A stretch of 64,000 bases of DNA from Minisyncoccota bacterium (GTDB lineage Bacteria > Patescibacteriota > Minisyncoccia > Phycocordibacterales > UBA5272). This document shows positions 1 to 64,000 of the stretch, piece after piece. The position numbers were made by a program, and so were the translations under genes. The stretch is from NCBI GenBank assembly GCA_018062965.1, contig JAGORG010000005.1, positions 604 through 64,603 of the forward strand, given 5' to 3'. Each line of letters begins with the position of its first letter. Position 1 is the first letter of the stretch. The notes under the pieces are model-generated. The model searched no databases. It was given only the letters and a program-made list of their open reading frames with translations, and was not told the DNA's origin.

Positions 1-1168
1 CATTGTTAATCCCTGGAAATGGTTGCGCATGGATTTTGTCTGTAGGAGCAAGTAGTGTTGATGGGCGGATAGTTATATCAACAAGATGTGTCCTTTCGTT
101 TTTTGAAAGGTACTTTTTAGACAGTGTATATTTTTGCCCCATGCGTTTTAGTTTTTCCAGTTCAAGCTCCAGAAAATCAATAGGACAACGTTTGATGGTT
201 AAGGTCGATTTTGTTACGATTGCTGCCGAGATAAAAAACATGCTCTCAATAGGGTCTTCGCTGTTGTAGTGTTCTACTGTGCAATTGATATCTTTTTTTC
301 CATGAATAACAAGTGTTGTTGTGCCTATACCATCAATACGAACACCAAATCGTTCAAGTAAAAAGCAAACATCTTGAACTTGGTAGTTAGGTGGAGCAAA
401 CTTTATAGTTGTAGTTCCGGGTAGTTTCGCTGCTGCAAGTAGTGCGGTAATTGCCCCTGTATCAGATGATTCATACAAAGGAATGGTTGCACCTGGTTTC
501 ATCTCTATGTGTGATATATCGTACTGGTTTTCACGTGTAGTCACGTCTATACCCAAGTACTCCAAAGCATATTTATGAGAAGCGACTGTTCGCTCTCCCA
601 TTTTACATCCACCAGAGTGGGGCAAGAAAAATGAAGGTGAGTAGTGCACAAATGCCCCAGCAAATGTAAATGATCTAATCCGAGCAGCGACATCTTTGTT
701 TATCTTTTTAAGCGAAAGTTTTTTACCAGGTGTGATTTCAAGAGAGGTGTCATTATTAATCCAGCGGATTTTTACGCCAACGCTTTCAAGAAGTTCTTTG
801 TAGCGATACACCTCTTCGATATGGGGAATGCCATGAAGGACTGTTGTTCCGTTGTTGATAAGCGCCGCAACCATCATGTTAACAGCACCGTTTTTTGATG
901 TATTAGTTTCTATTGAGCCAGAGAGTTTTCTCCCGCCTTCTACTTGAAAATCAATAGTATCATTGAGAGATAGAATAGGGCGCTTTAGAACTTCGCTTAT
1001 TTTTGAAAGCTGTTCTATGGTGATGTTTTGGTTACCGCTCTCAATACGAGCTATAACGCTTTGGGTTGTTTTAAGCTCCTTTGCAAACGACTCTTGGGTT
1101 AGTCCTTCAACTTCACGAAGGTGTTTAATAAATTGACCTATCTTTTCTATCTCGGTTGATTCACTCAT
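1..1168 (-). CDS. murA: UDP-N-acetylglucosamine 1-carboxyvinyltransferase (MurA) with an N-terminal HTH-XRE domain. The ORF is continuous and runs off the window start, so the C-terminus is missing.
   Basis: Minus-strand translation from the ATG at 1166-1168 begins MSESTEIEKIGQFIKHLREVEGLTQESFAKELKTTQSVIARIESGNQNITIEQLSKISEV, which is a Cro/C1-type HTH. It continues FQVEGGRKLSGSIETNTSKNGAVNMMVAALINNGTTVLHGIPHIEEV...LPHSGGCKMGERTV, matching the MurA N-terminus and the catalytic-Cys loop (E. coli LPGGCTIGARPVD). I checked the reading frame by hand down to nt 2, and the six-frame ORF track does not list this ORF. Confidence 0.75.
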   Translation of the reverse strand, partial: MSESTEIEKIGQFIKHLREVEGLTQESFAKELKTTQSVIARIESGNQNITIEQLSKISEVLKRPILSLNDTIDFQVEGGRKLSGSIETNTSKNGAVNMMVAALINNGTTVLHGIPHIEEVYRYKELLESVGVKIRWINNDTSLEITPGKKLSLKKINKDVAARIRSFTFAGAFVHYSPSFFLPHSGGCKMGERTVASHKYALEYLGIDVTTRENQYDISHIEMKPGATIPLYESSDTGAITALLAAAKLPGTTTIKFAPPNYQVQDVCFLLERFGVRIDGIGTTTLVIHGKKDINCTVEHYNSEDPIESMFFISAAIVTKSTLTIKRCPIDFLELELEKLKRMGQKYTLSKKYLSKNERTHLVDITIRPSTLLAPTDKIHAQPFPGINN

Positions 1169-1177
1169 AAAAAATAG

Positions 1178-1195
1178 TATAGCATATGTGCTATA
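1178..1195. promoter_or_regulatory. Perfect 18-bp palindrome TATAGCAtatgTGCTATA, 10-27 nt upstream of the HTH-MurA start. It is a candidate operator for the fused HTH domain and overlaps a TGcTATACT -10-like box.
   Basis: The 7-bp inverted arms separated by 4 nt were read directly from the sequence. The position is the divergent promoter region between the murA fusion gene (-) and the membrane protein gene (+). Confidence 0.5.
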
Positions 1196-1266
1196 TAAAA
1201 ATTATGTTGATTAGTAAGAGAAATTAGCATACTTGTATACCTTCAAATGATATACTATGTGGCAGT

Positions 1267-1800
1267 ATGCAGCGCTACAAGTACACCATTTTAATGGTTA
1301 TAACGTTTATTCTTGCCTGGGCTATTGGTAGCTTTAGTGCGATTGATGAGTTTGCTTCTTCTTTTGCTACAACCAATACCATAGTCTTTACTATCATAGC
1401 AGGGGCTATGTATTCGTTTTCGTTTACGGCTGGACTCGCTGTAGTGTTATTTGCTCACGTGCCAGTCGCGGCAGAAACACATATACAACTAGCACTCATC
1501 GGAGCTTTTGGAGGGCTGCTCGCAGACTTGCTGATATTTAGATTTATCAAAGACGTGATTCTTCATGAGTTGGGTAAAAAAGCCGAGGCGTTTATCGCTC
1601 GAGAGACTCGCTCGCGCGGTCGGCGCATTATTATGCAGATTATAGGCGCGATCATTATTGCTTCTCCATTCCCAGATGAAATAGGGCTCACGTTTATGGG
1701 CTTGTCTCATATCACCTTTTGGCGACTCGTTATCCTCACTTATGTCTTGGATGCTATAGGTATTTATATTCTTATTTCTGCAGTTACAAGTTTTGTGTAG
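1267..1800 (+). CDS. Small polytopic membrane protein of unknown function
   Basis: The 177-aa ORF has several hydrophobic segments (ILMVITFILAWAIGSF, LAVVLFAHVPVAA, IIGAIIIASPF, LVILTYVLDAIGIYILI). I recognised no motif. Confidence 0.45.
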   Translation: MQRYKYTILMVITFILAWAIGSFSAIDEFASSFATTNTIVFTIIAGAMYSFSFTAGLAVVLFAHVPVAAETHIQLALIGAFGGLLADLLIFRFIKDVILHELGKKAEAFIARETRSRGRRIIMQIIGAIIIASPFPDEIGLTFMGLSHITFWRLVILTYVLDAIGIYILISAVTSFV

Positions 1801-3557: not shown

Positions 3558-4475
3558 TTAAGCGTGTAGGTGAAGGTAGATGTCTTCAAGAGCTCGTACG
3601 GCGTCTCCCGCTGCGATGTTGTTTTGATGATAGAGTACATCTGTACAATCTCCGGCAGCCCAGATACCTTGTACGCTTGTTTCTTGTGTGCGTGGGTTAA
3701 TAATAATATTTTTTGTTGGGCTAAGATCAAGAAGGTTTTCAACGAAAGATGTTGCGGGGATTTGCCCGATTTCAACAAACACTGCAGCAACAGGAAGTTT
3801 TATTTCTTCACCAGAACCATCTGTGTAGCTGAGCGACTCCACAAACACAGACCCTTCTACTTTTGTTGGAACAGCGTTTTCGATCAGTTTAAAGTTCGGG
3901 TGTCGTTTTAGTTTTTCTACGGTGATAGCGTCAGCTTTTGGTGCGCTGCGAGAAAGAAGAGTTACACTTTTGCAGTAGGCGAGCAGTTGAGCTGCAGATT
4001 CAAACCCAGCATTACCTCCACCAACCACAACAACATCCATGCCACCAAAAAGTGGTCCATCACATGACGCACAGTAGGTGAGACCTTTATGTTCAAACGT
4101 GTCAGCTCCAGGAACTTCAAGTTTTCTTCGTGCTGAACCAGTAGAGACGAGCACTGTTTTTGTTAGGTATGTTTCAGTGGTTGTTGTAACAGTAAAGTCC
4201 CCATCTGTTCCAGATATGGCACTCACTTCACCTTCTACAATAGATAGAATGTCTCCTTTGTATTCCTCAACGTGTGCACGGAGAGATGTTGCTAGCTGTG
4301 CCCCAGAGATGTGTGGTGTACCAATCCAGTTTTGAATATCGTCAGAGACGATAGACTGGCCTCCCCATTCCTTGAGAATGAGTAGTGTTTTGAGTTGTTT
4401 TCGAGCAGCATATACAGCTGCCGCAGTTCCAGCAGGGCCTCCACCGATAATAACAAGGTCGTAGATAGTAGACAT
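3558..4475 (-). CDS. trxB: Thioredoxin-disulfide reductase
   Basis: FAD motif IIGGGPAGTAAAVYAARK, redox-active CASCDG, and NADPH motif VVGGGNAGFESAAQL. The ORF-track start at 4493 is a GTG, and the internal ATG (MSTIYDLVIIGGG) at 4475 is the likelier start. Confidence 0.9.
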   Translation of the reverse strand: MSTIYDLVIIGGGPAGTAAAVYAARKQLKTLLILKEWGGQSIVSDDIQNWIGTPHISGAQLATSLRAHVEEYKGDILSIVEGEVSAISGTDGDFTVTTTTETYLTKTVLVSTGSARRKLEVPGADTFEHKGLTYCASCDGPLFGGMDVVVVGGGNAGFESAAQLLAYCKSVTLLSRSAPKADAITVEKLKRHPNFKLIENAVPTKVEGSVFVESLSYTDGSGEEIKLPVAAVFVEIGQIPATSFVENLLDLSPTKNIIINPRTQETSVQGIWAAGDCTDVLYHQNNIAAGDAVRALEDIYLHLHA

Positions 4476-4490
4476 AGAGTAACAGTGTAA

Positions 4491-7590: not shown

Positions 7591-7836
7591 TTATCTGCGT
7601 TTCTTTTTTTCTACAAGCTTACCCATTCGCTTTGCAAGTTCGTATTTTTCTTTTCCAGCAAGCTTCTTCATCTTTGCTTTCTTTACTTTGAGGTCAGAAA
7701 GAGCTCGATCGCTGTAGCGAAGTGAGCGAACACGTGGGAGAACCCCAGATTCCTGAACCTTCTTCTGGAAACGACGAAGGAGAGAAAGAGCGTTTTCTCC
7801 ACCGTTCTTGATTACTTGTACGTTAACGTTTGACAT
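7591..7836 (-). CDS. rpsU: 30S ribosomal protein S21
   Basis: From the internal ATG: MSNVNVQVIKNGGENALSLLRRFQKKVQESGVLPRVRSLRYSDRALSDLKVKKAKMKKLAGKEKYELAKRMGK, which resembles bS21 (VxV..NE..E.ALRRFKR...G.L.E.R.R..Y.KP). TTATAAT lies 9 nt upstream. Confidence 0.8.
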   Translation of the reverse strand: MSNVNVQVIKNGGENALSLLRRFQKKVQESGVLPRVRSLRYSDRALSDLKVKKAKMKKLAGKEKYELAKRMGKLVEKKKRR

Positions 7837-7945
7837 AGTGGGCTCTATTATAACACAGCAAAAAGCGATTAGCAATTAGCTTTTAGAGGAAAATAAAAAG
7901 CCCCCATGTTCTTGGGTTGCTTTTGAAATGTGCTTAGCGTGATGT

Positions 7946-8395
7946 TTACTTGGTCTTTTTTGCAAGTTTGCCAACGGTAAGTCCTTTGGCTAAGAGTACC
8001 TCTCTGATTTCATTCAGGGATTTGCGCCCAAGATTCGCTATTTTTAATAGATCGTCCTCAGTTAGTTTGAGTAAATCGCCAATCGTTTGGATATTTTCCA
8101 TACGCAGAAGGTTGGCTGTTCTTACGGTTAGTTCAAGCCTGTCGATTGACTCAGCGGAAAAAGTCTCCTCTGAAGTCAAAGGGGCGGTTTGTCCTTTTAT
8201 CAAGGAGTCGAGGCGGTCGCGTTCTTTGGCGAGAGGAAGGACAACCTTACCTGCGGCCTTCTCTAGATCTTCATGTTCCTGTTGTAGTAATCCAATTTGG
8301 AGCTTGATTTCACCTTGTCGAGCTTTAATCCGGATGAGTTCCTCTTCCAGTTCTCTCAGGTTGAGAATTGGCACAGAGTTTCCTGTTGCTGCCAT
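7946..8395 (-). CDS. Standalone alpha-CTD-like protein (RNA polymerase alpha C-terminal domain fold) with an N-terminal coiled coil
   Basis: The C-terminal half, [59 protein letters not shown], aligns with E. coli RpoA alpha-CTD ([58 protein letters not shown]). The N-terminal half is heptad-like ([32 protein letters not shown]). A strong Shine-Dalgarno site, GGAGG, sits 6 nt before the ATG, which is unusual for this genome. Confidence 0.6.
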
Positions 8396-8509
8396 GAGTT
8401 GCCTCCTAAGTAATAATGAACAAATGTAAAATTCACACTACATGTAAAATGTAACATTGTCAATGAAATGTTTATTCGCTGAAAAGACTGTGAGCAGGGT
8501 AGAGTGTTG

Positions 8510-9854: not shown

Positions 9855-10592
9855 TTATTTTTCGTACTGATAACGACCCGGCTCAAGACCAAACATCGAA
9901 AAGGGGAGAACGCGCAGGAGTACCTGTCCGCGTATCGCATGGGCTTCAAGTGGTCCCCAATCTCGACTATCGTAACTTTGTGATCTGTTATCTCCCATCA
10001 TAAAGTAATGGTCTCCATCAAGTATCCTGTCCACGGTCTTGCTCGTGTCTTTGTAGGTAACATATGGCTCATCGAGGATAAATCCATCAGGACTCTCCGT
10101 ATTATAAATAGTAGTTACTCCGCCTTTGATAACGATACGTTCACCAGGAAGACCTATGACACGCTTGATGAGGTGTTTGCCTCCATAAGGGTTGCCAGAC
10201 TCTTCTAGTTTAAACACCATAACATCGCCACGCTTTGGTTCGCCGAGGCGATATGACAACTTGTCTACCAAAAGAAATTCTTGGTTGTGAAAGGTTGGTA
10301 GCATCGATCCACCATCAACGATGAACGGTTGAACGATAAATGTCTGAAGGATTTTGACAATAAGCATCACTGCGACAATCCATAGAAGAAGAGATGATGG
10401 ACGCTCGTCCTCTTCGAGGAATCGTGCGCGAACAAGTGTGTCTCTCCAGCTTGGGAATATCATTGCGAATCCAAGCGATATGATAAGCAGTGTGAGGATA
10501 GAAAAGATGGTGAGAGAAATTGGATTTTGACTGACTTCTAGAAGAGAATCAGCGAGTGCACCACCAATCGAGGAGAGCGTCGTATCGAACAT
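9855..10592 (-). CDS. lepB: Signal peptidase I
   Basis: Catalytic box GGSMLPTF (Ser), box E GDNRSQSYDSRDWG, and an N-terminal TM segment. The start is likely the internal ATG at 10592 (MFDTTLSS), 7 nt after a TATACT box. The longer ORF-track N-terminus overlaps pth. Confidence 0.85.
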   Translation of the reverse strand: MFDTTLSSIGGALADSLLEVSQNPISLTIFSILTLLIISLGFAMIFPSWRDTLVRARFLEEDERPSSLLLWIVAVMLIVKILQTFIVQPFIVDGGSMLPTFHNQEFLLVDKLSYRLGEPKRGDVMVFKLEESGNPYGGKHLIKRVIGLPGERIVIKGGVTTIYNTESPDGFILDEPYVTYKDTSKTVDRILDGDHYFMMGDNRSQSYDSRDWGPLEAHAIRGQVLLRVLPFSMFGLEPGRYQYEK

Positions 10593-10657
10593 GTGAGTCA
10601 GTATATAGATTTGAATCTGTGTCTGCAAATTTTGCGTTCGTTTGATACACTGTGTGC

Positions 10658-11188
10658 ATGATATACACGCTCGTACCTCTTGGTAATCCTGGAAATGACT
10701 ATGCTCGCACTCGTCACAATGCTGCACGTATTGTGCTTTCACATATAACAGATGAACTAGTATCTACTTCAAATCTTGAAATATTCGTACCCGAAACCTA
10801 CATGAATGAAAGTGGTCGTGCAGTTGCAGAATATCTTCGTTACCATGAAGGGCGTGAGCTTGTTGTTATGTATGACGACAAAGATTTACCTCTTGGTAGT
10901 TTGCGTATTTCTCATGATAGAGGTGACGGAGGGCATAATGGAGTTAAAAGTATTATTGAGGCTCTCGGTACGCGAGAGTTTACACGAATTCGTATTGGTA
11001 TTGCACCGATTGCGGTGGACGGTGAAACAGCTGTTGCTCCACATGGAGATATGGTGCAAGGGTTCGTTATGGGGAAGGCAACAGAAGATGAAATGACTGC
11101 GTATAAAGCTGTCTCTTCAAAAGTCTTACGAGCGCTTCGAGATATTTGTGAGCATGGATATCAAAAGGCAATGGAAAGGAATAACTAA
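10658..11188 (+). CDS. pth: Peptidyl-tRNA hydrolase
   Basis: LVPLGNPGNDYARTRHNAARIVL, the canonical Pth N-terminal motif, and HNG later in the sequence. The ATG is at 10658. Confidence 0.9.
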   Translation: MIYTLVPLGNPGNDYARTRHNAARIVLSHITDELVSTSNLEIFVPETYMNESGRAVAEYLRYHEGRELVVMYDDKDLPLGSLRISHDRGDGGHNGVKSIIEALGTREFTRIRIGIAPIAVDGETAVAPHGDMVQGFVMGKATEDEMTAYKAVSSKVLRALRDICEHGYQKAMERNN

Positions 11189-11239: not shown

Positions 11240-11428
11240 TTACTTGTACGTTGCAAGGGCAAGCTCAGTTGCTTGCCTCAAGATAGATTCTTTCGGTAAA
11301 TGAAGCTGATCTTCAATAGCCTGCAGTTCGTTCACTGCATCTTGTGAAGGTTGTGTGCTTTCTGCGGTAAGCATCGCATACCGCAGAATGAGTTTTTTTC
11401 TTTCAGAATTCATGATTGTTTTGTTCAT
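11240..11428 (-). CDS. Small hypothetical protein (62 aa)
   Basis: ORF only, but a hairpin plus T-run terminator lies downstream at about 11198-11233. Confidence 0.3.
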   Translation of the reverse strand: MNKTIMNSERKKLILRYAMLTAESTQPSQDAVNELQAIEDQLHLPKESILRQATELALATYK

Positions 11429-11442
11429 AACTAACTCCTTTC

Positions 11443-11892
11443 TTATTTTATAGTAACATGTAATCTATAAAAAGTCAATAAAGCAAATGTTGCGTATCCA
11501 GCTCTACCGTTTTCAACAAGTGGTCGCATCCATTCGATGTCTTTACCTTTCTTGTTAAGCTCTCTTGACATAAGATTTATAGAATCCATAAGAGCATTAT
11601 GAAGGTGGTGCCTGCGTTCATCTGTTTGTGCCAAAAGTTCTGCGTCTTCTCGAGTGTCCTCACCTTGCTCTCTTTTTTTAGCTAGTGCAATCTGTTCAAG
11701 CATCATAGAATATACGTCGTGCGCGTACCTGTGTACATACGTTTTCATGCTTGTAAAACATGTTTCAAGAGTAGGGTCTCCCGAACAAAGCGCTTCAAGT
11801 TCGTGCGGTAGTATAGATGGTTGCAGTTCACCATACCCAGAAGTTTCTAGCTTAGACACAAGACTGTTTGTTGTTTCAAGTTCGTGATGCAT
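11443..11892 (-). CDS. Hypothetical protein (about 149 aa from the internal ATG)
   Basis: ORF between pth and rpsA. I recognised no motif. Confidence 0.4.
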   Translation of the reverse strand: MHHELETTNSLVSKLETSGYGELQPSILPHELEALCSGDPTLETCFTSMKTYVHRYAHDVYSMMLEQIALAKKREQGEDTREDAELLAQTDERRHHLHNALMDSINLMSRELNKKGKDIEWMRPLVENGRAGYATFALLTFYRLHVTIK

Positions 11893-11960
11893 ATATATAA
11901 GTGTACACAAAAAACAAAAAAACACAGAAAGTTCTGTGTTTTTTGTTTTTGCTTAGGTCC

Positions 11961-13223: not shown

Positions 13224-13592
13224 TTAGACAACGATTGGTGACGTTAGGGTTTTCATGCGGTAGTAGACGTATACCTTGTACCCCATCAGTTCGGTGGCAT
13301 GGTCGTGCAAAACAAACTGAACCCTATAGGTTTGGCTTTCCTTGGTGAGAAGGTTTGGAATCTTTCGTTCCAGTTCGTCCTTCTTAAGGAATGTCTTGAA
13401 GCCTTGTTTTATGGAGATACCTGTACCCGTTTTGATGCGGATGCCGTTGGTTGCGTTTTCGTTTGGCTCGCGAGTGCTAGAGCAGCGCGCGAACCAGCCA
13501 GCGACTTCCTCACCGTGAGCATGGAAGACCTCAAAGAGGATTCCATCCTCAACGAATGTACGCTCGAGGTTTCTGTAGTCATTCAGGTTCAT
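13224..13592 (-). CDS. Hypothetical protein (122 aa) in GC-rich island 1. The Shine-Dalgarno site GGAG lies upstream.
   Basis: The ORF starts 17 nt after the upstream ORF stop, its codon usage is GC-rich and unlike the host, and a terminator follows. I found no recognisable motif (HAHGEE is the only notable patch). Confidence 0.5.
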   Translation of the reverse strand: MNLNDYRNLERTFVEDGILFEVFHAHGEEVAGWFARCSSTREPNENATNGIRIKTGTGISIKQGFKTFLKKDELERKIPNLLTKESQTYRVQFVLHDHATELMGYKVYVYYRMKTLTSPIVV

Positions 13593-13609
13593 GTCCTTGC
13601 TCCTTGTTG

Positions 13610-14011
13610 TTAAACCGGAACGCTAACCGTGACCCGGACCGGAACCTTAATCGAGCAGTAGACCTGCTCGGTGAGGATCCCTGTTTCCAGCTCTCCAGGG
13701 TTATGGAAGGCGCGAATCTCAAAGATGCCTTCTTCTCCGCCGGTTGCAGCGGTGATTTTCTCACTAGGAATCTCAAGGGTGAGAATCTCGACGCTGGGAT
13801 CCTTATCGGATATTCCGACAACCGAGTGAGCTGGAGGTGACTGCCAGTTCTTGGGTTTCCCATTCGCGCCGACGAAGGCAAGAATAATGGGCAGCCCAGG
13901 GACCAGTTGCATGAGGGTACCAATGCGAGTCGTCTTGGTTTTAACGTTAACCACGGAAACGGTTGCTCCGTGAAGTTTTTGAGCAATTTGAAATGTCTTT
14001 GCGGTAGCCAT
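13610..14011 (-). CDS. Hypothetical protein (133 aa) in GC-rich island 1
   Basis: A canonical Shine-Dalgarno site (ttgaaAGGAGtgcatcATG) and GC-rich codons. I found no recognisable motif. Confidence 0.5.
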   Translation of the reverse strand: MATAKTFQIAQKLHGATVSVVNVKTKTTRIGTLMQLVPGLPIILAFVGANGKPKNWQSPPAHSVVGISDKDPSVEILTLEIPSEKITAATGGEEGIFEIRAFHNPGELETGILTEQVYCSIKVPVRVTVSVPV

Positions 14012-14202
14012 GATGCACTCCTTTCAATGGTGTGCGTGAACTATATTTCTAAGTAAGTATGGCAACCCCCTTAGAAACAACCCTGAGCAGTGCCAGAAAA
14101 AAAACTTTTTCTAAGCGCCGTCAGTAGCGTATATAATATAACATATTAATAAGTAAATGTCAATGTTCTCTTATTTTTCAGTTCAAGATATTTAGGATAT
14201 TA

Positions 14203-14232
14203 AAATAAAAAGCCCGCATCTTTCGATGCGGG
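14203..14232 (-). terminator. Rho-independent terminator after the 60-aa gene
   Basis: On the minus strand: CCCGCATC-gaaa-GATGCGGG followed by CTTTTTATTTT. Confidence 0.7.
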
Positions 14233-14249
14233 AGATGTGATGGGGTTGG

Positions 14250-14432
14250 TCAGCCTTTGCGGCCGGTACCCATCTTGATGGTGCGGGCCGAGCAAACAAA
14301 ATTACTCGGAGTGTTTGTGCGGGGGATTCCCACACTCAGCGGCTTCAGTCCGGGTCTGGCAGATGCCGGGGGCGGGCTGTAGTCCCGCATTTCGACTTCG
14401 CCATTGGCTTTCTTGAAAGTGACCTTGCACAT
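14250..14432 (-). CDS. Small protein (60 aa) of unknown function, apparently set up for high expression
   Basis: MCKVTFKKANGEVEMRDYSPPPASARPGLKPLSVGIPRTNTPSNFVCSARTIKMGTGRKG. The Shine-Dalgarno site GAGGAG sits 7 nt before the ATG at 14432. A consensus promoter (TTGACA-16-TATACT) lies upstream and a clean terminator lies downstream. Confidence 0.5.
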   Translation of the reverse strand: MCKVTFKKANGEVEMRDYSPPPASARPGLKPLSVGIPRTNTPSNFVCSARTIKMGTGRKG

Positions 14433-14494
14433 GTCTTTGCTCCTCAAAGTGTGCTTTTTCTATGCAGCTGACCACCAGCTACATTTCTCTCTAC

Positions 14495-14522
14495 AGTATA
14501 CATACTTTTACATATTTGTCAA
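14495..14522 (-). promoter_or_regulatory. Consensus sigma70-type promoter (TTGACA -35, 16-nt spacer, TATACT -10) driving the 60-aa gene
   Basis: On the + strand the sequence reads AGTATA (14495-14500) ... TGTCAA (14517-14522), so on the minus strand it reads TTGACA-16-TATACT. Confidence 0.6.
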
Positions 14523-14563
14523 GTGTTCCTAAAAAAGCGAGTAGCTGATACACTTTTGTAACT

Positions 14564-15199
14564 ATGATTATTACTCACTACGGACGACAGCATTTCAAAC
14601 TTCAGGTTGGAGATACAACTTTTGCTATCAATCCAGTTTCAAAAGAGGGGCGAGGAAAAACTGCAAAATATGGTGCAGATGTGTGTTTGGTTACTACAAA
14701 TCACCCAGACTATAACGGTATCGAGCAGGTGACACATGGAGAAAAAGTACCGTTTGTGATTTCTGGTGCAGGGGAATACGAAGTTGCAGGTATTTTTATC
14801 AAAGGGTTTGCAACAGAAGTAGAACTCAAAGAAGGAAAGACAGAAAAAACCTATCAAAACACAAGTTACTGTTTTACCTTTGACGGTATCCGTGTGACGT
14901 TTTTGGGTGCTCTTGGTAAGAAGCTTGAACCACATCACAAAGAAGTTATAGATGAAACAGACGTGTTGTTTGTTCCGGTTGGAGATGATTCATTTTTGCT
15001 TAACCCATACGATGCAGAAAAGTTGTCTGTTTCTCTTGAGCCAAAACTTGTTATTCCAATGGATTATGATGAACAATCGCTTCCTATTTTCCTCAAGGAA
15101 GCAGGTGCTGAAAAAGTGGAACCAGTTGAAAAGCTCACCATCAAAAAGAAAGACATAGAAGGCAAGAACGCTGAAGTGGTACTGTTCCACGAGATGTAA
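14564..15199 (+). CDS. Metallo-beta-lactamase-fold hydrolase (UPF0173/UlaG-like)
   Basis: The N-terminus MIITHYGRQHFKLQVGDTTFAINP matches the MBL-fold 'MKITWLGHACF.I..G..IL.DP' pattern, and the protein is about 210 aa. Confidence 0.6.
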   Translation: MIITHYGRQHFKLQVGDTTFAINPVSKEGRGKTAKYGADVCLVTTNHPDYNGIEQVTHGEKVPFVISGAGEYEVAGIFIKGFATEVELKEGKTEKTYQNTSYCFTFDGIRVTFLGALGKKLEPHHKEVIDETDVLFVPVGDDSFLLNPYDAEKLSVSLEPKLVIPMDYDEQSLPIFLKEAGAEKVEPVEKLTIKKKDIEGKNAEVVLFHEM

Positions 15200-15253
15200 T
15201 CATAGAGAGTACAACCAACCAGATAAGGTTGGTTTCTTTGTTATACTTGAACT

Positions 15254-15604
15254 ATGAAACTTTCTTGGGCAGGATATGTGCGATATTTACGGAGACAGTC
15301 AGTGCATGTTCAGCATATGCATGGACTTGTCTTTGCTGGTGTCATAACAGGTGTATTGGTGAGCTTTGTACTGTATACCCAGTACGGGTTTTTTCATGAA
15401 CAGTACACACGCGAAGAAACATCTCTTGTAGCTGCTACATCCACCATGCCCCAGTCTCCAACCGGAGTGCTCGAAAGCTTTATTATGGAAGGAAGTGCGC
15501 GTTTGCGGGCTGTATTTACGAGCACGTCAGCTCCTTTTGTTGACGATACGAATATGGACTACATACGCACAGAACAGGGTCCTGCATCATCCACAAAACC
15601 ATAG
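15254..15604 (+). CDS. Small single-TM membrane protein of unknown function
   Basis: TM segment LVFAGVITGVLVSFVLY. A TATACT box lies 6 nt before the ATG. Confidence 0.4.
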   Translation: MKLSWAGYVRYLRRQSVHVQHMHGLVFAGVITGVLVSFVLYTQYGFFHEQYTREETSLVAATSTMPQSPTGVLESFIMEGSARLRAVFTSTSAPFVDDTNMDYIRTEQGPASSTKP

Positions 15605-19001: not shown

Positions 19002-19069
19002 AGTTTTTTATTCGTTCTGTGTAGTACCCACTAGTAACTATCAACTATTACCTATAAACTAGGTTTATT

Positions 19070-19591: not shown

Positions 19592-19601
19592 ACTCTAAAG
19601 T

Positions 19602-22795: not shown

Positions 22796-22811
22796 ATGAT
22801 ATACTTTTTGC

Positions 22812-41780: not shown

Positions 41781-41844
41781 ACTATAGTGCATATGCTTTG
41801 CAATTTTTGAAAAGTCTTGTCAAATATGGTATAATTCATTAGTT

Positions 41845-44554: not shown

Positions 44555-44971
44555 CTACATATGGCCAAGCTCTTGCAGGGCCAGCTGGAGAGATTTGCGC
44601 TCAACCGATAGCAGTTTTACGGCAGGTTTGCCCAGCATATTGTTGCCTGTAAGCCTCAGTGTTACCCACTGGGCTCTGCCGTTTTTTACGGCTTCAAGCA
44701 GGAGAGGTACAGAGACTTCATGCCCAATGTCCATCATCACGTTTTTGAACTTGCAAAAGCCGGGCTTATGCAGGCGGATAACTGTGACACGGAACTGAAG
44801 TTGCTCGATCTTTGCCGAGATTTCTGACCTCTGCGGTAAAGGTGCGATGGTGACGTTATGTTGTCCTGGCCTCCTCATAAGGCCAATCATTTTTTTCTGT
44901 CCCCAGGCCCTAACCATTTCGGTAGGAGATAAGGCTTGGGGCTTTTCTAATACTTCGCTTTCTTGGCTCAT
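44555..44971 (-). CDS. Hypothetical protein (138 aa), forming GC-rich island 3
   Basis: About 52-55 % GC, the Shine-Dalgarno site GAGG 6 nt before the ATG, and its own terminator. I recognised no motif (MSQESEVLEKPQALSPTEMVRAWGQKKMIGLMRRPGQHNVTIAPLPQRSEI...). Confidence 0.45.
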   Translation of the reverse strand: MSQESEVLEKPQALSPTEMVRAWGQKKMIGLMRRPGQHNVTIAPLPQRSEISAKIEQLQFRVTVIRLHKPGFCKFKNVMMDIGHEVSVPLLLEAVKNGRAQWVTLRLTGNNMLGKPAVKLLSVERKSLQLALQELGHM

Positions 44972-45105
44972 CTTGTCCTCGTAAAGTACTTCTTGTGATT
45001 GACCTTGTTACAGGTCTCGATTTGCTCATTGTAGAGCTAATTTCCCGCTTTAGTTCAAACAGGTTACTAGTTGCAAAGGCAAGAATATATTGTACAATAG
45101 AATCA

Positions 45106-46350
45106 ATGAAAAGGCAAGACCTACAAAAAGCTGAATTGCCTGAAGTTCCTGGAGTATATTTTTTCCGGGACAAAGAAGGAAATATCCTCTATATAGGAAA
45201 AGCTACTAGTCTACGCGACCGTGTGCGTAGTTATTTCAATCCGGACCTCATGAAAGCCCGTGGGCTTCGTTTAGTGAGCATGGTTACCATTGCAGATACG
45301 GTAACATTTCAAACAACAGAAAGCGTACTTGAGGCACTTCTTCTTGAAAGTAAGCTCATCAAAAAACATAATCCTCCGTATAATGCAAAAGAAAAAGATA
45401 ACAAGAGCTTTAGCTGTGTTGTGATAACCAAAGAGCAGTTCCCTCGGGTGCTTATTATGCGTATCAGAGACTATGAAAAGCGCTACACAAAGAAAGACGT
45501 TCAGGTTGTCTATGGACCATTTGCTTCACTGCAAACGCTCAGGGACGCCATGAAGATTATCCGTAAACTGTTTCCGTATCGAGATAGATGCGAACCTTGT
45601 ATAGTAGATGGTGTTTATGGGCTACGCACATCGTGCAAGCCATGCTTCAATACCCAGATAAAACTCTGCCCAGGGGTCTGTTACGGTGCAATTTCTGAGC
45701 AGGAATATAAAAGACATATATCCAATGTGCAGAAACTCCTCGAAGGTAAAAAGACAGAAATAAAAAAGAGTCTAGAGAAAGAGATGAAAGACTATGCCAA
45801 AAAAGAGGCTTTTGAAAAAGCTGCACATGTCCGTAATACCTTGTGGGCGCTTGATCATATAAAAGACACTAGCCTTATTAAGGAAGATGAAATATTGTCT
45901 TTTAAACATGCCGCATTTCGTATTGAGGCGTATGATGTTGCACACATCTCTGGCACATCTCGAGTAGGGGTCATGGTTGCTCTTGAGGGAAAGGAAAAGA
46001 TGAAAGAGGATTACCGCAAGTTTAAGCTCCCAGAAAAAACAAACGACGATTATGCTGGATTACGTGAAATCCTAACTCGCCGTTTTGCTCATACTGAGTG
46101 GCGATATCCAGACCTTATTGTGATAGATGGGGGACTGGCTCACAAGCAAACTGCAGAAAAAGTACTCGCCACACTCGGACTTAGTATCCCATGTGTTTCG
46201 GTTGTGAAAGATAAAGGACATAAAGCAAAAGACATACTTGGAACCAAGCTTCATGTGGATAACCATACAAAGGAAATACTTTTAGCTAACGCTGAGTCTC
46301 ACCGTTTTGCAATCGGCTACCACAAACTCTTACGAAATAAGGTTGCATAA
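45106..46350 (+). CDS. uvrC: Excinuclease ABC subunit C (short form lacking an obvious C-terminal (HhH)2)
   Basis: GIY-YIG domain GVYFFRDKEGNILYIGKATSLRDRVRSYF, a Cys cluster (CEPC...C..C...C..C), and an RNase H-like endonuclease region. The promoter TTGCAA-16-TACAAT lies 7 nt before the ATG at 45106. Confidence 0.85.
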   Translation: MKRQDLQKAELPEVPGVYFFRDKEGNILYIGKATSLRDRVRSYFNPDLMKARGLRLVSMVTIADTVTFQTTESVLEALLLESKLIKKHNPPYNAKEKDNKSFSCVVITKEQFPRVLIMRIRDYEKRYTKKDVQVVYGPFASLQTLRDAMKIIRKLFPYRDRCEPCIVDGVYGLRTSCKPCFNTQIKLCPGVCYGAISEQEYKRHISNVQKLLEGKKTEIKKSLEKEMKDYAKKEAFEKAAHVRNTLWALDHIKDTSLIKEDEILSFKHAAFRIEAYDVAHISGTSRVGVMVALEGKEKMKEDYRKFKLPEKTNDDYAGLREILTRRFAHTEWRYPDLIVIDGGLAHKQTAEKVLATLGLSIPCVSVVKDKGHKAKDILGTKLHVDNHTKEILLANAESHRFAIGYHKLLRNKVA

Positions 46351-50605: not shown

Positions 50606-50796
50606 TCTGCTTCCACTTTTAGCGAATTTCCTCGTTGTCTTTGCTTGCTCACACCTCAATGTACTACATGTGCATCTTCAGTGTTCGCAAGCTAGACGCC
50701 TCGAACTTCATCTAAAACTCAAAGCTTGAATCTAGTCACCTTTATCTACATGGTGTAAGTATCTGCTTCTACGAGTGTGTTTGATATACTATCTAT

Positions 50797-51732
50797 ATGA
50801 AAATTCCTCAGGCTAATTTGCCAAAAGTTGCCGTACTGCGCGGGGGAAATGTTAAGCGAGAAACATCTCTTAGTGAAGGTGCTCTTTTGTTGTCATCTCT
50901 GTCGAAGATAGGGTACGAACCATATGATGTTTTGATTGAAGAGGATGGCACATGGGTGCATCGTGGTATGCCGACAGATCCACATGCTGTGTTTACTCGT
51001 GTTGATGGGTATGTTGATACAACACGAACCAACAAAGAAATCTATCACGATCTAGCGTCTCGCATGGGGATACCGGACGTCCTTCGTGGACACGAGCTTC
51101 CTCATGATGAAGACAGCGAGACAACATTTCGTATTTTGCGCCAAGCAGGTATCGCTGTTCCTGAGACAGCAGTTATACGCGCACGAGGTGCAGTTGTAGA
51201 TGAACACTTGTATGAACTGTGGCGCACTATGCATACGCCGCTTCTCGTGAGGTCGCTTTCTCCACAGAGAAGTGAATCGGCAAAGCTTGTGCGCTCTCTT
51301 AAAACATTGCGTGACACCATTAACTCATTTTTAGAAAAACAAGAAGACGTGCATATTTTGACGTATACAGATGTTCCAACGTACAGTATCGCAGTACTTC
51401 CTGCGTACAGAGGAGAACCTTACTACACACCATTTCCCGTGTTCACTAAAGGCACAAAAGGTGAGGTGCCACACGGAGCATCAAAGCTCTACGGATACAC
51501 TGACGGCTCACCTGAAGATCGTATGCGTATTGCTTCTCTCGCACAAGAGGTTGCGAAAGCTTTGTCAGTAGCAACACCCGTTACGGTGGATATTATAAAA
51601 GATAAAGATGTATACAAAGTAGTTCGTGTTGATGTTGCTCCATCATTGCGTCCGGAAGGAAGATTTCTTTCATCACTTGCAACAACCGGGGTTGATATAG
51701 GCCACTATATTCACAGTAAATTATTTATATAA
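50797..51732 (+). CDS. D-alanine--D-alanine ligase-like ATP-grasp protein (divergent, possibly non-canonical)
   Basis: The N-terminus KVAVLRGGNVKRETSLSEGALL matches Ddl [20 protein letters not shown]. Further matches are PLLVRSLSPQRSESAKLV~PVIVKPSREGSSVGMSKV, VRVDV and the APSLRPEG region ~RIDVML...EANTSPGMT. Several catalytic positions appear substituted. A TGaTATACT box lies 6 nt before the ATG. Confidence 0.6.
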   Translation: MKIPQANLPKVAVLRGGNVKRETSLSEGALLLSSLSKIGYEPYDVLIEEDGTWVHRGMPTDPHAVFTRVDGYVDTTRTNKEIYHDLASRMGIPDVLRGHELPHDEDSETTFRILRQAGIAVPETAVIRARGAVVDEHLYELWRTMHTPLLVRSLSPQRSESAKLVRSLKTLRDTINSFLEKQEDVHILTYTDVPTYSIAVLPAYRGEPYYTPFPVFTKGTKGEVPHGASKLYGYTDGSPEDRMRIASLAQEVAKALSVATPVTVDIIKDKDVYKVVRVDVAPSLRPEGRFLSSLATTGVDIGHYIHSKLFI

Positions 51733-54026: not shown

Positions 54027-55196
54027 TTATCGGGTGTCTTTAATAGGAATAATATATGTGATGCCGTAGAGTATCATGAGTGCGAGTAAGAGAAACATCA
54101 ACCCAGGGTAGGAAACAAGAATTGGGCTTACCAAGACCCCCAATGCGGCAATTGATATGGTTGCGAGGCTACGAATATTTCCAAATAAAGCAGTGAGTGA
54201 AACATCTTCGGCGTCTACTTTCTTAAAGAAGTATGTAAATATCATTGTCTCTGTACATGCTGCCCCAATACGAGAGAAGAGGAGTATACCAACCCACACT
54301 AGCACATTACTGCTCTGTGTAACAATAATCGCAAGTAAAGAAAGAACCATAATGAGTAATCCTACAATCAGAATTTCTTTTTCTCCATATCGTCTGTCTG
54401 CTATGCGTCCAAGCTCATATGGCAAGAGAATAAGTGGGATAAGAGCAATAGGCATAATAACCGACAGGTAAACAGCAAGAGGTATTCCAAGAGATGTGAT
54501 ATATATTGGAGAGTAGATAACCATAACCGCATAGAAGCTTTCAAGTAAAAACATAGCAACAAGGGCACCTCGTAGATTTTTATTTCTCCAGGCACGTTTA
54601 GCTGCTTCTAGCATGTCTATTGTATGGTATGCAGGGTCGCGTACATGCTTCATGTATCCATGCAAAAAATAAAGGAATGGGATAAGCGCAAGAGAAGCAA
54701 CAATATAAAGCGCCTCAAAACCTTCTCGTGAGAGGAATGTTCCACCAATAAGAGGTGCTATCAAAATACCAAGGTTAAGTAGTGTCAAAAATATTCCACG
54801 AACTGCACCGGTTTCTGCATGTTTGGTAAATGTTTCGATAAAAATATTTAGGATGATATAAATCATCGCCTGAATACAAAAATGAAGCACGAAAAATAAA
54901 CCAATGAGAAGCGGGTTTTTTGAAAGCGCAAAAAGTAAGGTTACAGCTATTTCTGCAAGCACAAGTCCAACCGTAAAATGATACGTATGATATCGTCTGA
55001 TGTATCGAGTTACACGAAGTGAAACAAGAAGCGTCAAAATACTCCCAGCAACATATAAAGCACTAACAGTTGTGGAGCTAAAATATGTAGCAAGAAATGA
55101 TGAGGTTGCATACAGAGGTATGCCGTAGTGAAGGGCATACAAGAGCGTCATAATAAATGTCGCAAGGAGAAGTTTGTTTCGCGTAATCGCGTGCAT
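54027..55196 (-). CDS. MFS-type transporter (about 12 TM)
   Basis: 389 aa with two 6-TM halves. A TATACT box lies 6 nt before the ATG at 55196. Confidence 0.65.
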   Translation of the reverse strand: MHAITRNKLLLATFIMTLLYALHYGIPLYATSSFLATYFSSTTVSALYVAGSILTLLVSLRVTRYIRRYHTYHFTVGLVLAEIAVTLLFALSKNPLLIGLFFVLHFCIQAMIYIILNIFIETFTKHAETGAVRGIFLTLLNLGILIAPLIGGTFLSREGFEALYIVASLALIPFLYFLHGYMKHVRDPAYHTIDMLEAAKRAWRNKNLRGALVAMFLLESFYAVMVIYSPIYITSLGIPLAVYLSVIMPIALIPLILLPYELGRIADRRYGEKEILIVGLLIMVLSLLAIIVTQSSNVLVWVGILLFSRIGAACTETMIFTYFFKKVDAEDVSLTALFGNIRSLATISIAALGVLVSPILVSYPGLMFLLLALMILYGITYIIPIKDTR

Positions 55197-55243
55197 ATAA
55201 GGATAGTATATAGCAGGAGGCTATTAGTTAGTAGTGGGTAGCA

Positions 55244-58968: not shown

Positions 58969-59193
58969 TTAGCCGATAAATATGTGGGCAGCAAGAGATG
59001 CAACAAAAGCAATACTTACAAGAATAGTAAGTCTATGAAGGAGTTTTTCACCTCCGCGCTTTTCGAGAACTGCTCCACTTCCTCCGTCAGCACCAAGAGC
59101 TCCTGAAGCGTCTGTGTTTGCGCGCTGGAGAAGAACGAGGGCTATAAGGAGAACGGCTAGCGTTAATTGCACAAAAGATAGCAGATGAACCAT
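58969..59193 (-). CDS. secG: Preprotein translocase subunit SecG
   Basis: 74 aa with two TM helices flanking a Gly-rich loop (LQRANTDASGALGADGGSGAVLEKRGGEKLLHRLT), which is the SecG pattern. TGcTATACT lies 5 nt before the ATG. Confidence 0.75.
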   Translation of the reverse strand: MVHLLSFVQLTLAVLLIALVLLQRANTDASGALGADGGSGAVLEKRGGEKLLHRLTILVSIAFVASLAAHIFIG

Positions 59194-59387
59194 ATACTTA
59201 GTATAGCATAAGCCTTTTGCTAAGGCAAAGTGGTTTTATTGGTTGGAGGTTTGGGTTGGTTTTTGGGCTTGTGTAACTTGCACCTTTTTCAAAAACAAGG
59301 TACACAGATATGTATGGGGGCATTACACAAAAACCCGTGTGCAATGTCTGAATTATTAATCTAAAAACAATAAATAATCCGTACTAT

Positions 59388-63000: not shown

Positions 63001-63145
63001 ACTCAATTGTTCCGTACATGTTTGCGTAATCAGTTAAAGCAAGAGCAGGCATCCCAAGTTCTTTTGCTCGTTTTACTAGGGCGGGTACTTTGGGGACAGC
63101 ATTCAAGAGGGAGTAGTGGCTATGCGTACGGAGATGAATAAACAT
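60017..63145 (-). CDS. dnaE: DNA polymerase III alpha subunit (DnaE-type)
   Basis: An N-terminal PHP domain (FIHLRTHSHYSLLNAV), a polymerase core with a PDxD motif region, and a C-terminal OB fold. 1042 aa. TGaTACACT lies 6 nt before the ATG. Confidence 0.95.
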   Translation of the reverse strand: MFIHLRTHSHYSLLNAVPKVPALVKRAKELGMPALALTDYANMYGTIEFYQACQKAEIKPIIGVEFSVAYQEREFAIVLIALDEAGYKNLMRITSIVNMEDPEHPILRFETLVTYQEGLIVLSGGPWGDVSNLLTIDEQKAEDRLKEYLAIFGDRYYLEVSPHTFMERGQEMREKTIALAKKYSIPLVATWNSHYLLPQDKSAHKTLFMVHGDQGSNDLYNHKFQKGEFYFADIPTTEKIFADIPEAVENTTKLVDRVNLTINLGAWVFPNIEFKKNYNEDLRELAYAGLIVRGMEKTDAVVTRLEYELKVIADKGYSPYFLVVYDLLRFARENKILTNIRGSVAGSLVTYLLRITNVDPFVYKLPFERFLNPERPSAPDIDMDYADTRRDEVIDYARRKYGIDNVAQIGTFGTMMARGAVKDVARAMKYPYVVGDRISKMIPPPRQGFPVTIAGALAEVPELKELYDTDREVQTILDMAQQVEGCARHISVHAAGTVISPSPLWDFTPIQKDPKGGKVITQYDMYTIEDAGLLKFDFLGIRNLTILGDAITLVHDRYGVDVDIENVPLEDKKTFEMLARGETMGLFQLNGSGMTRFLKELKPSTIFDINAMVALYRPGPLEMIPEYIARKHNPSLVSYLDSRLETILDQSFGVITYQDDVMLIAIHLAGYSWLEADKLRKAMGKKIPAEMQAQKEKLLKGFIEHGLSQKKADQLWSLIEPFAAYGFNKAHAASYGRVAYQTAYMKANYPVAYMTAIMSNESGDVEKIAEIVSECKRLQIPVLPPDVNKSEGGFSIVKDASGEKEEIRFGLYTIKNLGKDIADAIIAERKAHGPYTSFENFIQRIHHKNLNKKSIESLTRCGALDEFAERGQILANMDAILEFHKKTVKDNANQGSLFDMSSTMPFTLKPAPPATQEERLGWEKELLGLFVSGFPLDPWKEKILARGIDIDEVHHTVPDGKEVSLAVIIEHIKVTTTKKGDKMGLVTLRDYRGSIEVAVFPETYKRYKDKLVMDIPIVVRGKVSTRNGEKTIVIDEVKLLTR

Positions 63146-63183
63146 GGCTGTAGTGTATCAAAGATAGAGGGTATACTCATCTG

Positions 63184-63825
63184 ATGAAAAGTCTCGAAGT
63201 AATTGGTATAGATGAAGTCGGTAGAGGTCCTATTGCTGGCCCTGTAACGGTCTGTGCTTTTTACACAAATAACGAAAAGCTTCTAAAAAAGATTATTTTT
63301 AATAATACTATTAGAGATTCTAAAAAACTTACTAAACAATTAAGAAATAACATTTATTTAACTATTCGTAATTTACGAAAGAATAAAACAAAAGATTTAG
63401 AGATAGAATACAGCATTATTTCCCGCTCTGCAGAATATATTGATCGCCATGGAATAAATAAAGCAATACAGAGTTGTATCGCTACAGCTCTACGTAACCT
63501 ACAAGTAAAGTATAGTCATATTGAAAGGGTTATCTATAAGCTCGATGGAGGTTTAAAGCTTCCTATTCAATATATAAATCAGTCAACATACATACGAGGT
63601 GACGAAAATCATGCATCAATAGCCTTAGCATCCATTATGGCTAAAGTAACCAGGGACAGATATATGGAAAAAATGTCTAAAGAAAACACAGGGTATGATT
63701 GGCAAAACAATGTTGGATATGGTACCAAAAAACATTATGTAGGTATTAGTACATATGGATTATCAAAACTACACAGAGCAAGCTTTATAAGAGTATCAAA
63801 TACTTCGAATAAACAGAAAAATTAA
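63184..63825 (+). CDS. rnhB: Ribonuclease HII
   Basis: IGIDEVGRGPIAGPVTVCA matches RNase HII GIDEAGRGPLAGPVV. An AT-rich, Lys/Asn-rich insertion lies in the middle. A TATACT box lies 6 nt before the ATG. Confidence 0.8.
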   Translation: MKSLEVIGIDEVGRGPIAGPVTVCAFYTNNEKLLKKIIFNNTIRDSKKLTKQLRNNIYLTIRNLRKNKTKDLEIEYSIISRSAEYIDRHGINKAIQSCIATALRNLQVKYSHIERVIYKLDGGLKLPIQYINQSTYIRGDENHASIALASIMAKVTRDRYMEKMSKENTGYDWQNNVGYGTKKHYVGISTYGLSKLHRASFIRVSNTSNKQKN

Positions 63826-64000
63826 AAAACAACTTTATAATCACCAAGTTTAGATACTATAAGGGCATTTTCGTAGCGAGTTTTAATTGAAATATCAGCT
63901 TATTTTATAAGGTTTGTGTACAAAAATTATTGGTTCGTATTGTGAGTGGTCTGTCTATTTAGGGTGACATTTTTCAAACAAAACAGTTTTCTTTTTAAGC

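Follow-up and report, generated by a model that had tools for sequence, protein, structure and literature searches.

A start-proximal extended -10 box and probable leaderless mRNAs in the native genes of a Paceibacteria genome segment

In a 64,000-nt stretch of contig JAGORG010000005.1 from a Minisyncoccota bacterium (hereafter the window; ~42% GC, 92% coding and 8% intergenic), the hexamer TATACT or TACACT (TAYACT) stands a few nucleotides before the ATG of many genes, and leaderless mRNA is, with high probability, the best reading of the native genes that carry this box. By native we mean all genes of the window outside a small class led by Shine-Dalgarno (SD) sequences, which is treated separately below. 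A preliminary description of the window, made from the sequence alone, had pointed to this box and proposed leaderless transcripts. Its coordinates were correct throughout, and the box lies just 5' of the ATG far above chance. It was also right that boxed native genes have no SD sequence; SD pairing is even avoided upstream of native genes.

Gene starts were called by a motif-blind rule, which takes the first in-frame ATG of the longest non-overlapping open reading frame (ORF). With these starts, TAYACT was found 6, 7, 8, 9 and 10 nt upstream of the ATG in 9, 4, 4, 2 and 1 genes, respectively (20 of 60), and at spacers of 0-5 or 11-16 nt in none of the 60. The genes with TAYACT at 6-10 nt start at 1168, 1267, 4475, 10592, 10658, 11892, 14564, 15254, 22812, 25441, 27840, 28543, 31422, 33212, 41206, 50797, 55196, 59193, 63145 and 63184. 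None of the 437 internal in-frame ATGs carried the hexamer in this range. The arrangement TAYACT-N6-ATG occurred nine times against 1.1 expected from shuffles, and none of 100 shuffles reached nine; the preliminary description had staked its proposal on an enrichment of this spacing. Motif discovery upstream of starts, which it had recommended, gave the same answer: in an unbiased count of 6-mers over the 25 nt preceding 65 starts, TATACT came out on top (15 observed, 0.35 expected, p=2e-20) and TACACT took fourth place, with AGGAG/AAGGAG as the sole independent second motif. There are 69 copies of TAYACT on both strands, about 23 of which precede a long ORF, and their density is 5.6 per kb in intergenic against 0.68 per kb in coding DNA. 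By a broader definition of the -10 element, a start-proximal box was present at 28 of 37 native unit-first genes (~76%) and at 3 of 16 tightly packed internal genes. The statement that mRNAs are mostly leaderless can therefore be kept for unit-first genes, but only about half of all native genes are boxed. A 50-kb stretch of Escherichia coli K-12 taken through the same pipeline as negative control showed no -10 peak and strong SD pairing (86% of genes at or below -3.45 kcal/mol). The hexamer TATACT or TACACT had been assigned to 22 listed genes, which holds for most of them; tgt, uvrC, glyQS and rpsU have variant -10 boxes, and rpmG does have a start-proximal box with a 9-nt spacer, but its hexamer is TATAAT. 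The start-proximal boxes of the window are the following:

1166..1181, minus strand: TGcTATACT, 7-nt spacer, ATG of the HTH-MurA-like fusion gene
1251..1269, plus strand: TGaTATACT, 10-nt spacer, ATG of a 177-aa gene without known function, divergent from the 1168 gene
4473..4489, minus strand: TGtTACACT, 8-nt spacer, ATG of trxB; box right after a terminator-like hairpin
7834..7875, minus strand: TTGCTA-17-TGtTATAAT, 10-nt spacer, ATG of rpsU (S21), start 7836
10590..10605, minus strand: TATACT, 7-nt spacer, ATG of lepB
10646..10660, plus strand: TGaTACACT, 6-nt spacer, ATG of pth; 65-bp divergent spacer to lepB
11890..11905, minus strand: TGTGTACACT, 7-nt spacer, ATG of a 149-aa unknown gene; terminator hairpin 11944-11917 precedes the box
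14549..14566, plus strand: TGaTACACT, 9-nt spacer, ATG of a metallo-beta-lactamase-fold gene
15242..15256, plus strand: TGtTATACT, 6-nt spacer, ATG of a 116-aa unknown gene
19055..19072, plus strand: TAAACT, 9-nt spacer, ATG of a methyltransferase gene
19589..19604, plus strand: TGTGTAAACT, 7-nt spacer, ATG of a 433-aa gene; box inside the 3' end of the upstream gene
22364..22380, plus strand: TATAAC (weaker box), 8-nt spacer, ATG of a pilin-like gene; TATACT 20 nt 5' of the ATG
22800..22814, plus strand: TGaTATACT, 6-nt spacer, ATG of a pilin-like gene; right after hairpin 22772-22789
23129..23145, plus strand: TGgTAGAAT, 8-nt spacer, ATG of glycyl-tRNA synthetase (glyQS, 23143)
24527..24567, plus strand: TTGCCA-17-TATAAT, 9-nt spacer, ATG of rpmG (L33)
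25429..25443, plus strand: TATACT, 6-nt spacer, ATG of gap; orthologues keep the box with spacers of 6-9 nt
27827..27842, plus strand: TATACT, 7-nt spacer, ATG of rpe, 15 nt behind the upstream gene (read as an internal promoter)
28531..28545, plus strand: TATACT, 6-nt spacer, ATG of the transketolase N-terminal subunit; box also present in orthologues
31378..31392, minus strand: TGgTACCAT, 6-nt spacer, ATG of a pfkB-family kinase gene, whose promoter faces away from that of fba
31408..31424, plus strand: TATACT, 8-nt spacer, ATG of fba
33198..33214, plus strand: TACACT, 8-nt spacer, ATG of the malic enzyme gene; box overlapping the upstream stop codon
35806..35820, plus strand: TGgTAGTAT, 6-nt spacer, ATG of tgt
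37408..37428, plus strand: TGcTATAAT, 12-nt spacer, ATG of uvrB; probable 5-6-nt leader
41191..41208, plus strand: TATACT, 9-nt spacer, ATG of a 175-aa unknown gene
41807..41847, plus strand: TTGAAA-17-TGgTATAAT, 9-nt spacer, ATG of uvrA
45093..45108, plus strand: TACAAT, 7-nt spacer, ATG of uvrC
50785..50799, plus strand: TGaTATACT, 6-nt spacer, ATG of a 311-aa gene
55194..55210, minus strand: TATACT, 8-nt spacer, ATG of an MFS transporter gene
59191..59205, minus strand: TGcTATACT, 6-nt spacer, ATG of secG
63143..63186, both strands: TGaTACACT-N6-ATG (dnaE, minus) and TATACT-N6-ATG (rnhB, plus), back to back in a 38-bp spacer

Nearly all gene names given earlier were supported by Pfam, which backs the HTH-MurA-like fusion gene, trxB, lepB, pth, S21, L33 (rpmG, located at 24565-24726), GlyRS, rpe, the split transketolase, fba, malic enzyme, tgt, uvrA, uvrC, the MFS transporter, secG, rnhB and a stand-alone RNA polymerase (RNAP) alpha-CTD protein. 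The gene at 50797 (311 aa), previously called ddl-like, had no Pfam match. The name uvrB was taken from the annotation of syntenic loci of relatives (L081, L082 and L085; L-numbers here and below denote loci or contigs from relatives), and that of dnaE was accepted from the N-terminal sequence and size only.

The box looks like the extended -10 element of a sigma-70 promoter. When 30 boxes were aligned, T1 and A2 were each present in 30/30 and T6 in 29/30, and position 5 was C in 22/30; upstream of the hexamer, G at -2 (22/30) and T at -3 (17/30) correspond to the extended -10, giving the local consensus TGnTA(T/C)ACT. At 17-bp spacing the -35 region showed a faint T, T and G (16, 16 and 11 of 30), the T's of which may stem from terminator T-runs, and strong -35 boxes were found mainly at SD-led genes. 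A generic -35/-10 scan yielded no excess over shuffles (32 vs 37.6, 38 vs 38.3 and 31 vs 39.3), so that only the start-anchored analysis is informative. At the commonest spacer, 6 nt, the A of the ATG is the seventh base after the hexamer. In 49 bacteria, mapped transcription starts centre 7 nt downstream of the -10 hexamer, and a Y-R-Y "start" element is found at transcription starts (PMC12641261). The base 5' of the ATG is a pyrimidine in 28/30 boxed starts, and the resulting Y-A-T fits this element. At long ORFs the codon after the box was ATG in 17 cases and GTG in none, with TTG at background level only. In a number of proteins, among them those of pth, rnhB, rpe, trxB and secG, Pfam domains start within residues 1-7, which indicates that these ATGs are the true starts.

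These distances also bear on another possibility, namely that the box is a -10 element but that transcription starts a few bases 5' of the ATG, leaving short leaders (3-10 nt) that would be translated by an SD-independent 30S pathway relying on S1 or an A/U-rich region, as in Bacteroidota. About one third of the spacers measure 8-12 nt, as it would expect, and a four-domain S1 protein is encoded at 11961-13013. In addition, ftsZ, gyrA and nrdA have apparent SD-free leaders of 11-32 nt, so that an SD-independent pathway for leadered mRNAs must exist anyway. We nevertheless consider short leaders improbable: the spacers peak sharply at 6 nt and none is shorter, as a start at the A predicts, and start choice tolerates 6-10 nt given a pyrimidine-purine step, which the ATG offers in 28/30 cases. 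Leaders of up to 5 nt behave as leaderless in the systems that have been studied.

The window falls in the candidate phyla radiation (CPR)/Patescibacteria, class Paceibacteria, whose phylum is Minisyncoccota in current NCBI naming, and its gap protein has 60-90% identical orthologues in metagenome-assembled genomes labelled Paceibacterota, Parcubacteria, Nomurabacteria, Kaiserbacteria and similar. Relatives were sampled as 80 gap loci (1.28 Mb) with 1,240 motif-blind starts; the analysis of unit position covered 1,120 genes of relatives and that of SD k-mers 1,199. Among the 1,120 genes, the box was present at 28-44% of divergent or spaced genes compared with 15% of genes lying no more than 20 nt behind a co-directional neighbour; for first versus tightly packed genes the figures were 35% and 15%, a 2.3-fold difference (Fisher p=5e-12). 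The window followed the same trend (19/40 vs 3/16, p=0.07). This bias speaks against TAYACT being a non-SD translation signal on the mRNA, like that of group B genomes in the GeneMarkS-2 classification, with the promoters farther upstream. Such a motif is expected equally before first and internal genes (PMC6028130). The distance of the box to the start does overlap that of ribosome-binding sites, and the box also precedes the internal genes rpe, malic enzyme and 19602. On the other side, the invariant T-A...T preceded by TG matches what sigma-70 recognises, and TAYACT is not complementary to the canonical 16S 3' tail. Moreover, a TATACT with TTGACA at 16 bp (14522-14495) lies ~56 nt upstream of the SD-led ORF at 14432, where it appears to act as an ordinary promoter. 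Finally, the divergent spacers of dnaE/rnhB (38 bp, 63146-63183) and pfkB/fba (41 bp, 31381-31421) are each filled by two back-to-back boxes and therefore leave no room for further promoters. Taken together, we regard a translation signal as very improbable.

In many cases the -10 box directly adjoins the terminator hairpin that ends the gene before it, as at 4475, 11892, 15254 and 22812, which again favours a promoter over a ribosome signal. These junctions (4489-4520, 11905-11944, 15213-15247 and 22772-22805) make up terminator-promoter-ATG modules of at most 60 bp, in which the terminator T-run may double as the upstream region of the promoter. The dnaE/rnhB and pfkB/fba spacers represent extreme promoter compaction. 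Modules of this size and two promoters per 38 bp help explain the coding density of ~92%. In the 433-aa gene at 19602, the upstream stop lies 10 nt before the ATG, and the box is read as an internal promoter.

Conservation of the box was analysed in the same relatives. Hexamers of the form TANANT were found at spacers of 6, 7, 8 and 9 nt in 172, 69, 59 and 48 genes against a background of 15-20 (1,240 genes, 80 loci), and this peak across the 80 loci indicates that the architecture is clade-wide; the variant with C at position 5 is a mark of the nearest relatives. Orthologues of gap, tkt, fba and rpe have the box 6-9 nt from the aligned ATG, and the sequence 5' of the box is unalignable. The fba box and spacer show 1-2 spacer substitutions in L002-L005 and L067 and are identical in L085/L086. 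A ACTAGTAAC-like motif upstream of the boxes was considered as a general element and discarded, since the window showed no enrichment of it (60 vs 52 expected). Direct repeats of the ACTAGTAAC type do occur just 5' of several boxes, mainly those of gap, rpe and tkt in L004, L005 and L067, and at two sites of the window (19025-19050 and 55215-55240).

SD free energy was calculated per gene, as the preliminary description had advised. Upstream of the 53 native genes, pairing with the anti-SD was weaker than upstream of internal ATGs (mean -0.85 vs -2.56 kcal/mol, p=3e-6), and only 13% of native genes reached -3.45 kcal/mol or below compared with 30% of internal ATGs. SD 4-5-mers were not enriched upstream of the 1,199 genes from relatives, and an SD sequence was present at only 2.9% of genes in the related loci. 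Native genes without a box have no SD either, and a dual model in which SD sequences serve leadered or internal genes therefore does not describe the window. Twelve internal native genes located 2-30 nt behind a neighbour carry neither box nor SD, and for these we infer translational coupling or re-initiation.

Several observations count against leaderless initiation as a complete account. Nine native unit-first genes have no start-proximal box, so the mechanism is not universal. In four of these nine, a good -10 box lies farther upstream of the ATG, within 17-38 nt: TGaTATAGT at 28 nt in ftsZ, TATACT at 28 nt in gyrA, TACACT at 38 nt in nrdA, and TGgTATACT at 32 nt in the cupin gene at 52157. 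Together with rpsA, these genes look leadered without SD. In rpsA (S1, four domains, 11961-13013), a TAGTAT box near 13140, about 120 nt upstream (13013-13145, minus strand), would give a putative leader of ~115 nt, the 3' end of which is a terminator-like hairpin (13046-13028) with a U-run abutting the AUG; this leader may serve the attenuation or autoregulation of S1, the only protein that leadered mRNAs require. About 15% of the tightly packed internal genes carry the box as well, which a pure first-gene-only model does not predict; these boxes are read as internal promoters. A pyrimidine at -1 is also found at 68% of motif-negative starts in relatives, which makes this base weak evidence, consistent with a start at the A. 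The spacers of 8-12 nt could leave leaders of 1-6 nt, those of 8-10 nt perhaps 1-3 nt. Lastly, the conserved 16S 3' region was not found in the window or in 86 related loci at up to two mismatches.

In spite of these points, leaderless mRNA remained the preferred reading, since each of its sequence-level predictions that was tried held, that is, the anatomy of the box, its spacing, the use of ATG only, the first-gene bias, conservation and SD avoidance. In the mechanism that we propose, the hexamer would be the -10 element of a housekeeping promoter of sigma-70 type, with an extended -10 and a weak or absent -35. In most native units RNA polymerase would start at the A of the ATG or 1-3 nt before it, and the resulting mRNA would have neither a 5' untranslated region (UTR) nor an SD. 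The ribosome and the initiator tRNA would then bind the 5'-terminal AUG directly. Tightly packed downstream genes (gaps of 2-30 nt, no SD or box) would be reached by re-initiation or coupling, and where neither is possible, a new promoter would sit in or just behind the upstream gene. The minority of 12 SD-led genes would depend on a classical -35/-10 promoter, a leader of 20-120 nt and an AGGAG SD. The position of the transcription start, the 70S/leaderless mode of initiation and re-initiation at internal genes are all deduced from sequence.

The arrangement shares traits with several known systems. Mycobacteria also use GTG on leaderless mRNAs and differ in this from the window, where the box is followed by ATG only. 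In the genomes of GeneMarkS-2 group C, which include Mycobacterium tuberculosis, Streptomyces and Deinococcus deserti, a Pribnow box with a weak -35 is located 6-8 nt before first-gene starts, transcription starts on the start codon, and 25-50% or more of the units are leaderless; the frequency of group C is 90% in Actinobacteria and 97% in Deinococcus-Thermus, and its signature has been validated by differential RNA sequencing in M. tuberculosis and D. deserti (PMC6028130). The window resembles group C in having a -10 motif 6-8 nt from the start before the first genes of operons. It differs in its lineage (CPR/Paceibacteria), in its consensus TGnTAYACT and in the higher share of unit-first genes with the box, ~76%. 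Furthermore, the remaining genes of group C use SD, whereas window natives without a box have no SD and avoid anti-SD pairing. In Bacteroidota, mRNAs are leadered, a non-SD motif precedes internal and first genes alike, and promoters follow a -7/-33 consensus. The near absence of SD genome-wide and the G-poor upstream regions are traits that the window shares with Bacteroidota (group B); unlike theirs, its motif is a sigma-70 -10 box biased to first genes. There is also a likeness to the archaeal group D (Haloferax, Sulfolobus), in which the distance between promoter element and start codon is fixed, mRNAs have lost the 5' UTR and genes inside operons are handled differently; the element there is a TATA/BRE box ~26 nt upstream, read by the archaeal polymerase (PMC6028130). 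The genome is thus a hybrid of two known SD-poor regimes, those of groups C and B, with a small classical class added.

The architecture is known from Actinobacteria and Deinococcus, and we did not find a report for the Paceibacteria lineage: full-text searches on leaderless mRNAs or SD in Patescibacteria, CPR, Parcubacteria and Saccharibacteria turned up nothing on point, literature searches yielded no mapped transcription starts for Paceibacteria, and an earlier computational classing into group C is possible. The ribosomes of Paceibacteria are reduced, and these organisms have few ribosome biogenesis factors. Leaderless initiation is a simpler pathway that is often considered ancestral; as a default, combined with core genes that make no use of SD, it would tie ribosome reduction to the simpler initiation pathway. 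In practical terms, gene finders and start callers that assume SD will misplace starts in these genomes, and the -10-to-ATG rule allows starts and promoters to be annotated precisely in a lineage for which hardly any experimental data exist.

The SD-led class comprises 12 genes with AGGAG-type sites (mean dG -7.1), which start at 8395, 11428, 13592, 14011, 14432, 25343, 35175, 35545, 37371, 40457, 41072 (weak) and 44971. The exceptions with SD sequences that had been named beforehand are among them, and four more were found (11428, 25343, 35545 and 37371). The class is encoded in the following regions:

7946..8410, minus strand: SD-led stand-alone RNAP alpha-CTD protein (TAGGAGG, 7 nt from the ATG, dG -9.9)
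11240..11445, minus strand: SD-led 62-aa ORF (AAAGGAG)
13224..14522, minus strand: SD-led cluster of 60-aa (14432), 133-aa (14011) and 122-aa (13592) ORFs; GC content at third codon positions (GC3) 0.56-0.68
24996..25397, minus strand: SD-led cupin (AAGGAGG, dG -10); promoter TTGCCA-16-TAGAAT, ~20-nt leader
34402..35276, minus strand: SD-led lipoprotein (AAGGAG; GC 0.55, GC3 0.64); TTGACT-16-TGnTATAAT, ~67-nt leader
35312..35560, minus strand: SD-led 77-aa ORF (GAAGGAG, GTG start)
37150..37432, minus strand: SD-led 73-aa ORF (TGGAGGG; GC3 0.60); promoter TTGACA-17-TAGCAT
39501..40475, minus strand: SD-led 318-aa gene of no known family between uvrB and uvrA (TAGGAG)
40590..41136, minus strand: weakly SD-led 160-aa gene of no known family (AAAGGAA); promoter TTGACT-16-TAGTAT
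44555..44990, minus strand: SD-led 138-aa gene of no known family between uvrA and uvrC (CGAGGA; GC3 0.55)

Among the full -35/-10 matches of the window, five of the top eight belong to these genes, whose leaders measure 20-120 nt. The cluster at 13224-14522 has promoters TTGACA-16-TATACT (14522-14495) and TTGACA-17-TGnTATATT (14163-14135), long leaders and terminators. The minus strand carries all 12 SD-led genes and 18 of the natives, against 35 natives on the plus strand; GC skew suggests that the minus strand is the lagging one. Mean GC3 is 0.50 in the SD-led class against 0.34 in natives (p=5e-6). The only Pfam families in the class are those of the cupin and the alpha-CTD protein. The latter (7946-8395) has 149 aa and a coiled-coil N-terminus, and its SD is among the strongest of the window. 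The ten unknown proteins had no match in Pfam, NCBIfam or PHROG except for a marginal transglycosylase PHROG for the lipoprotein (E=0.0013), and a phage or defence origin of the class was consequently discarded.

The preliminary description had treated the SD as a yardstick of native versus acquired genes. On such a reading the SD-led genes would be recently acquired foreign islands. In favour of this are their odd composition, the scarcity of known families, and the few homologues among 5.8 billion proteins for the two proteins searched (three for the 318-aa protein and four for the lipoprotein). To these can be added the rarity of SD in related loci already mentioned and the case of the 41072 gene (160 aa, 40590-41072), which is missing in L081 and replaced by a different 160-aa protein in L082-L084, suggesting a variable hot spot between uvrB and uvrA. 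The class is thus odd in composition and lineage-restricted as claimed, but its positions are kept in relatives: in L081-L086, too, the slots delimited by uvrC, uvrA, uvrB, tgt and malic enzyme are occupied by SD-led ORFs on the opposite strand, with the 41072 gene as the only variable one. In L085/L086, with a genome GC of 0.51 and core proteins 65-90% identical to those of the window, the slot genes have AGGAG-type sites and a GC3 of 0.72-0.86 vs ~0.55 in natives. The GC3 of SD-led genes is 0.15-0.3 above that of natives both in the window and in the GC-richer L085/L086, and an offset that is not ameliorated speaks for a maintained class rather than a recent arrival. Only the 318-aa protein and the lipoprotein have detectable orthologues in L085/L086, at 47-48% identity; the remaining slots are occupied by non-homologous SD-led ORFs whose GC3 is still elevated. 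The -35, extended -10, leader with its hairpin (CCCCTGCC-TTGG-TGGGCAG) and SD of the lipoprotein gene (window 35176-35276, minus strand; L085 9900-10000; L086 2070-2167) are nearly identical in L085/L086 in spite of only 48% protein identity, and this may be a conserved cis-regulatory leader. Pfam scans revealed no integrase or transposase near the SD-led genes. On this evidence recent islands are somewhat unlikely, and the SD-led genes are, as judged from their sequences and slots, apparently a resident fast-evolving gene class.

Conservation of the SD motif would imply a working anti-SD in these organisms, and the SD-led minority offers in this way indirect evidence for a functional anti-SD, as well as a handle on accessory fast-evolving genes. 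As a tentative and rather unlikely extension, Paceibacteria as a clade could house two expression regimes within one genome. Core genes would be transcribed from extended -10 promoters straight onto the AUG and translated SD-free, and a small fast-evolving, lineage-specific set (lipoprotein, alpha-CTD protein and proteins of no known family) would keep the classical package of consensus -35/-10 promoter, conserved structured leader and strong SD, along with its higher GC3 and its restriction to one strand. If that were true and the anti-SD were normally sequestered or conditional, the arrangement could act as a cell-wide translational switch that governs accessory genes, possibly those of host interaction. 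It would also make this class the third large bacterial lineage, and within the CPR the first, to have leaderless initiation as its default. The GC3 offset and strand bias of the SD-led genes are the most novel lead.

Rfam detected one tRNA in the window and no further match. In this tRNA-Trp gene (24778-24866, plus strand), TGtTAGAAT ends 8 nt before the mature 5' end, which would give a 5' leader of 0-2 nt; leaderless tRNAs were rejected as a general pattern, given that 32 tRNA genes from the window and relatives showed no consistent -10 spacing. Two overlapping genes (28543-30391) encode the N-terminal and C-terminal parts of a split transketolase, and the region 2-1168 encodes a MurA/EPSP-synthase-family enzyme with an N-terminal HTH_3 domain.

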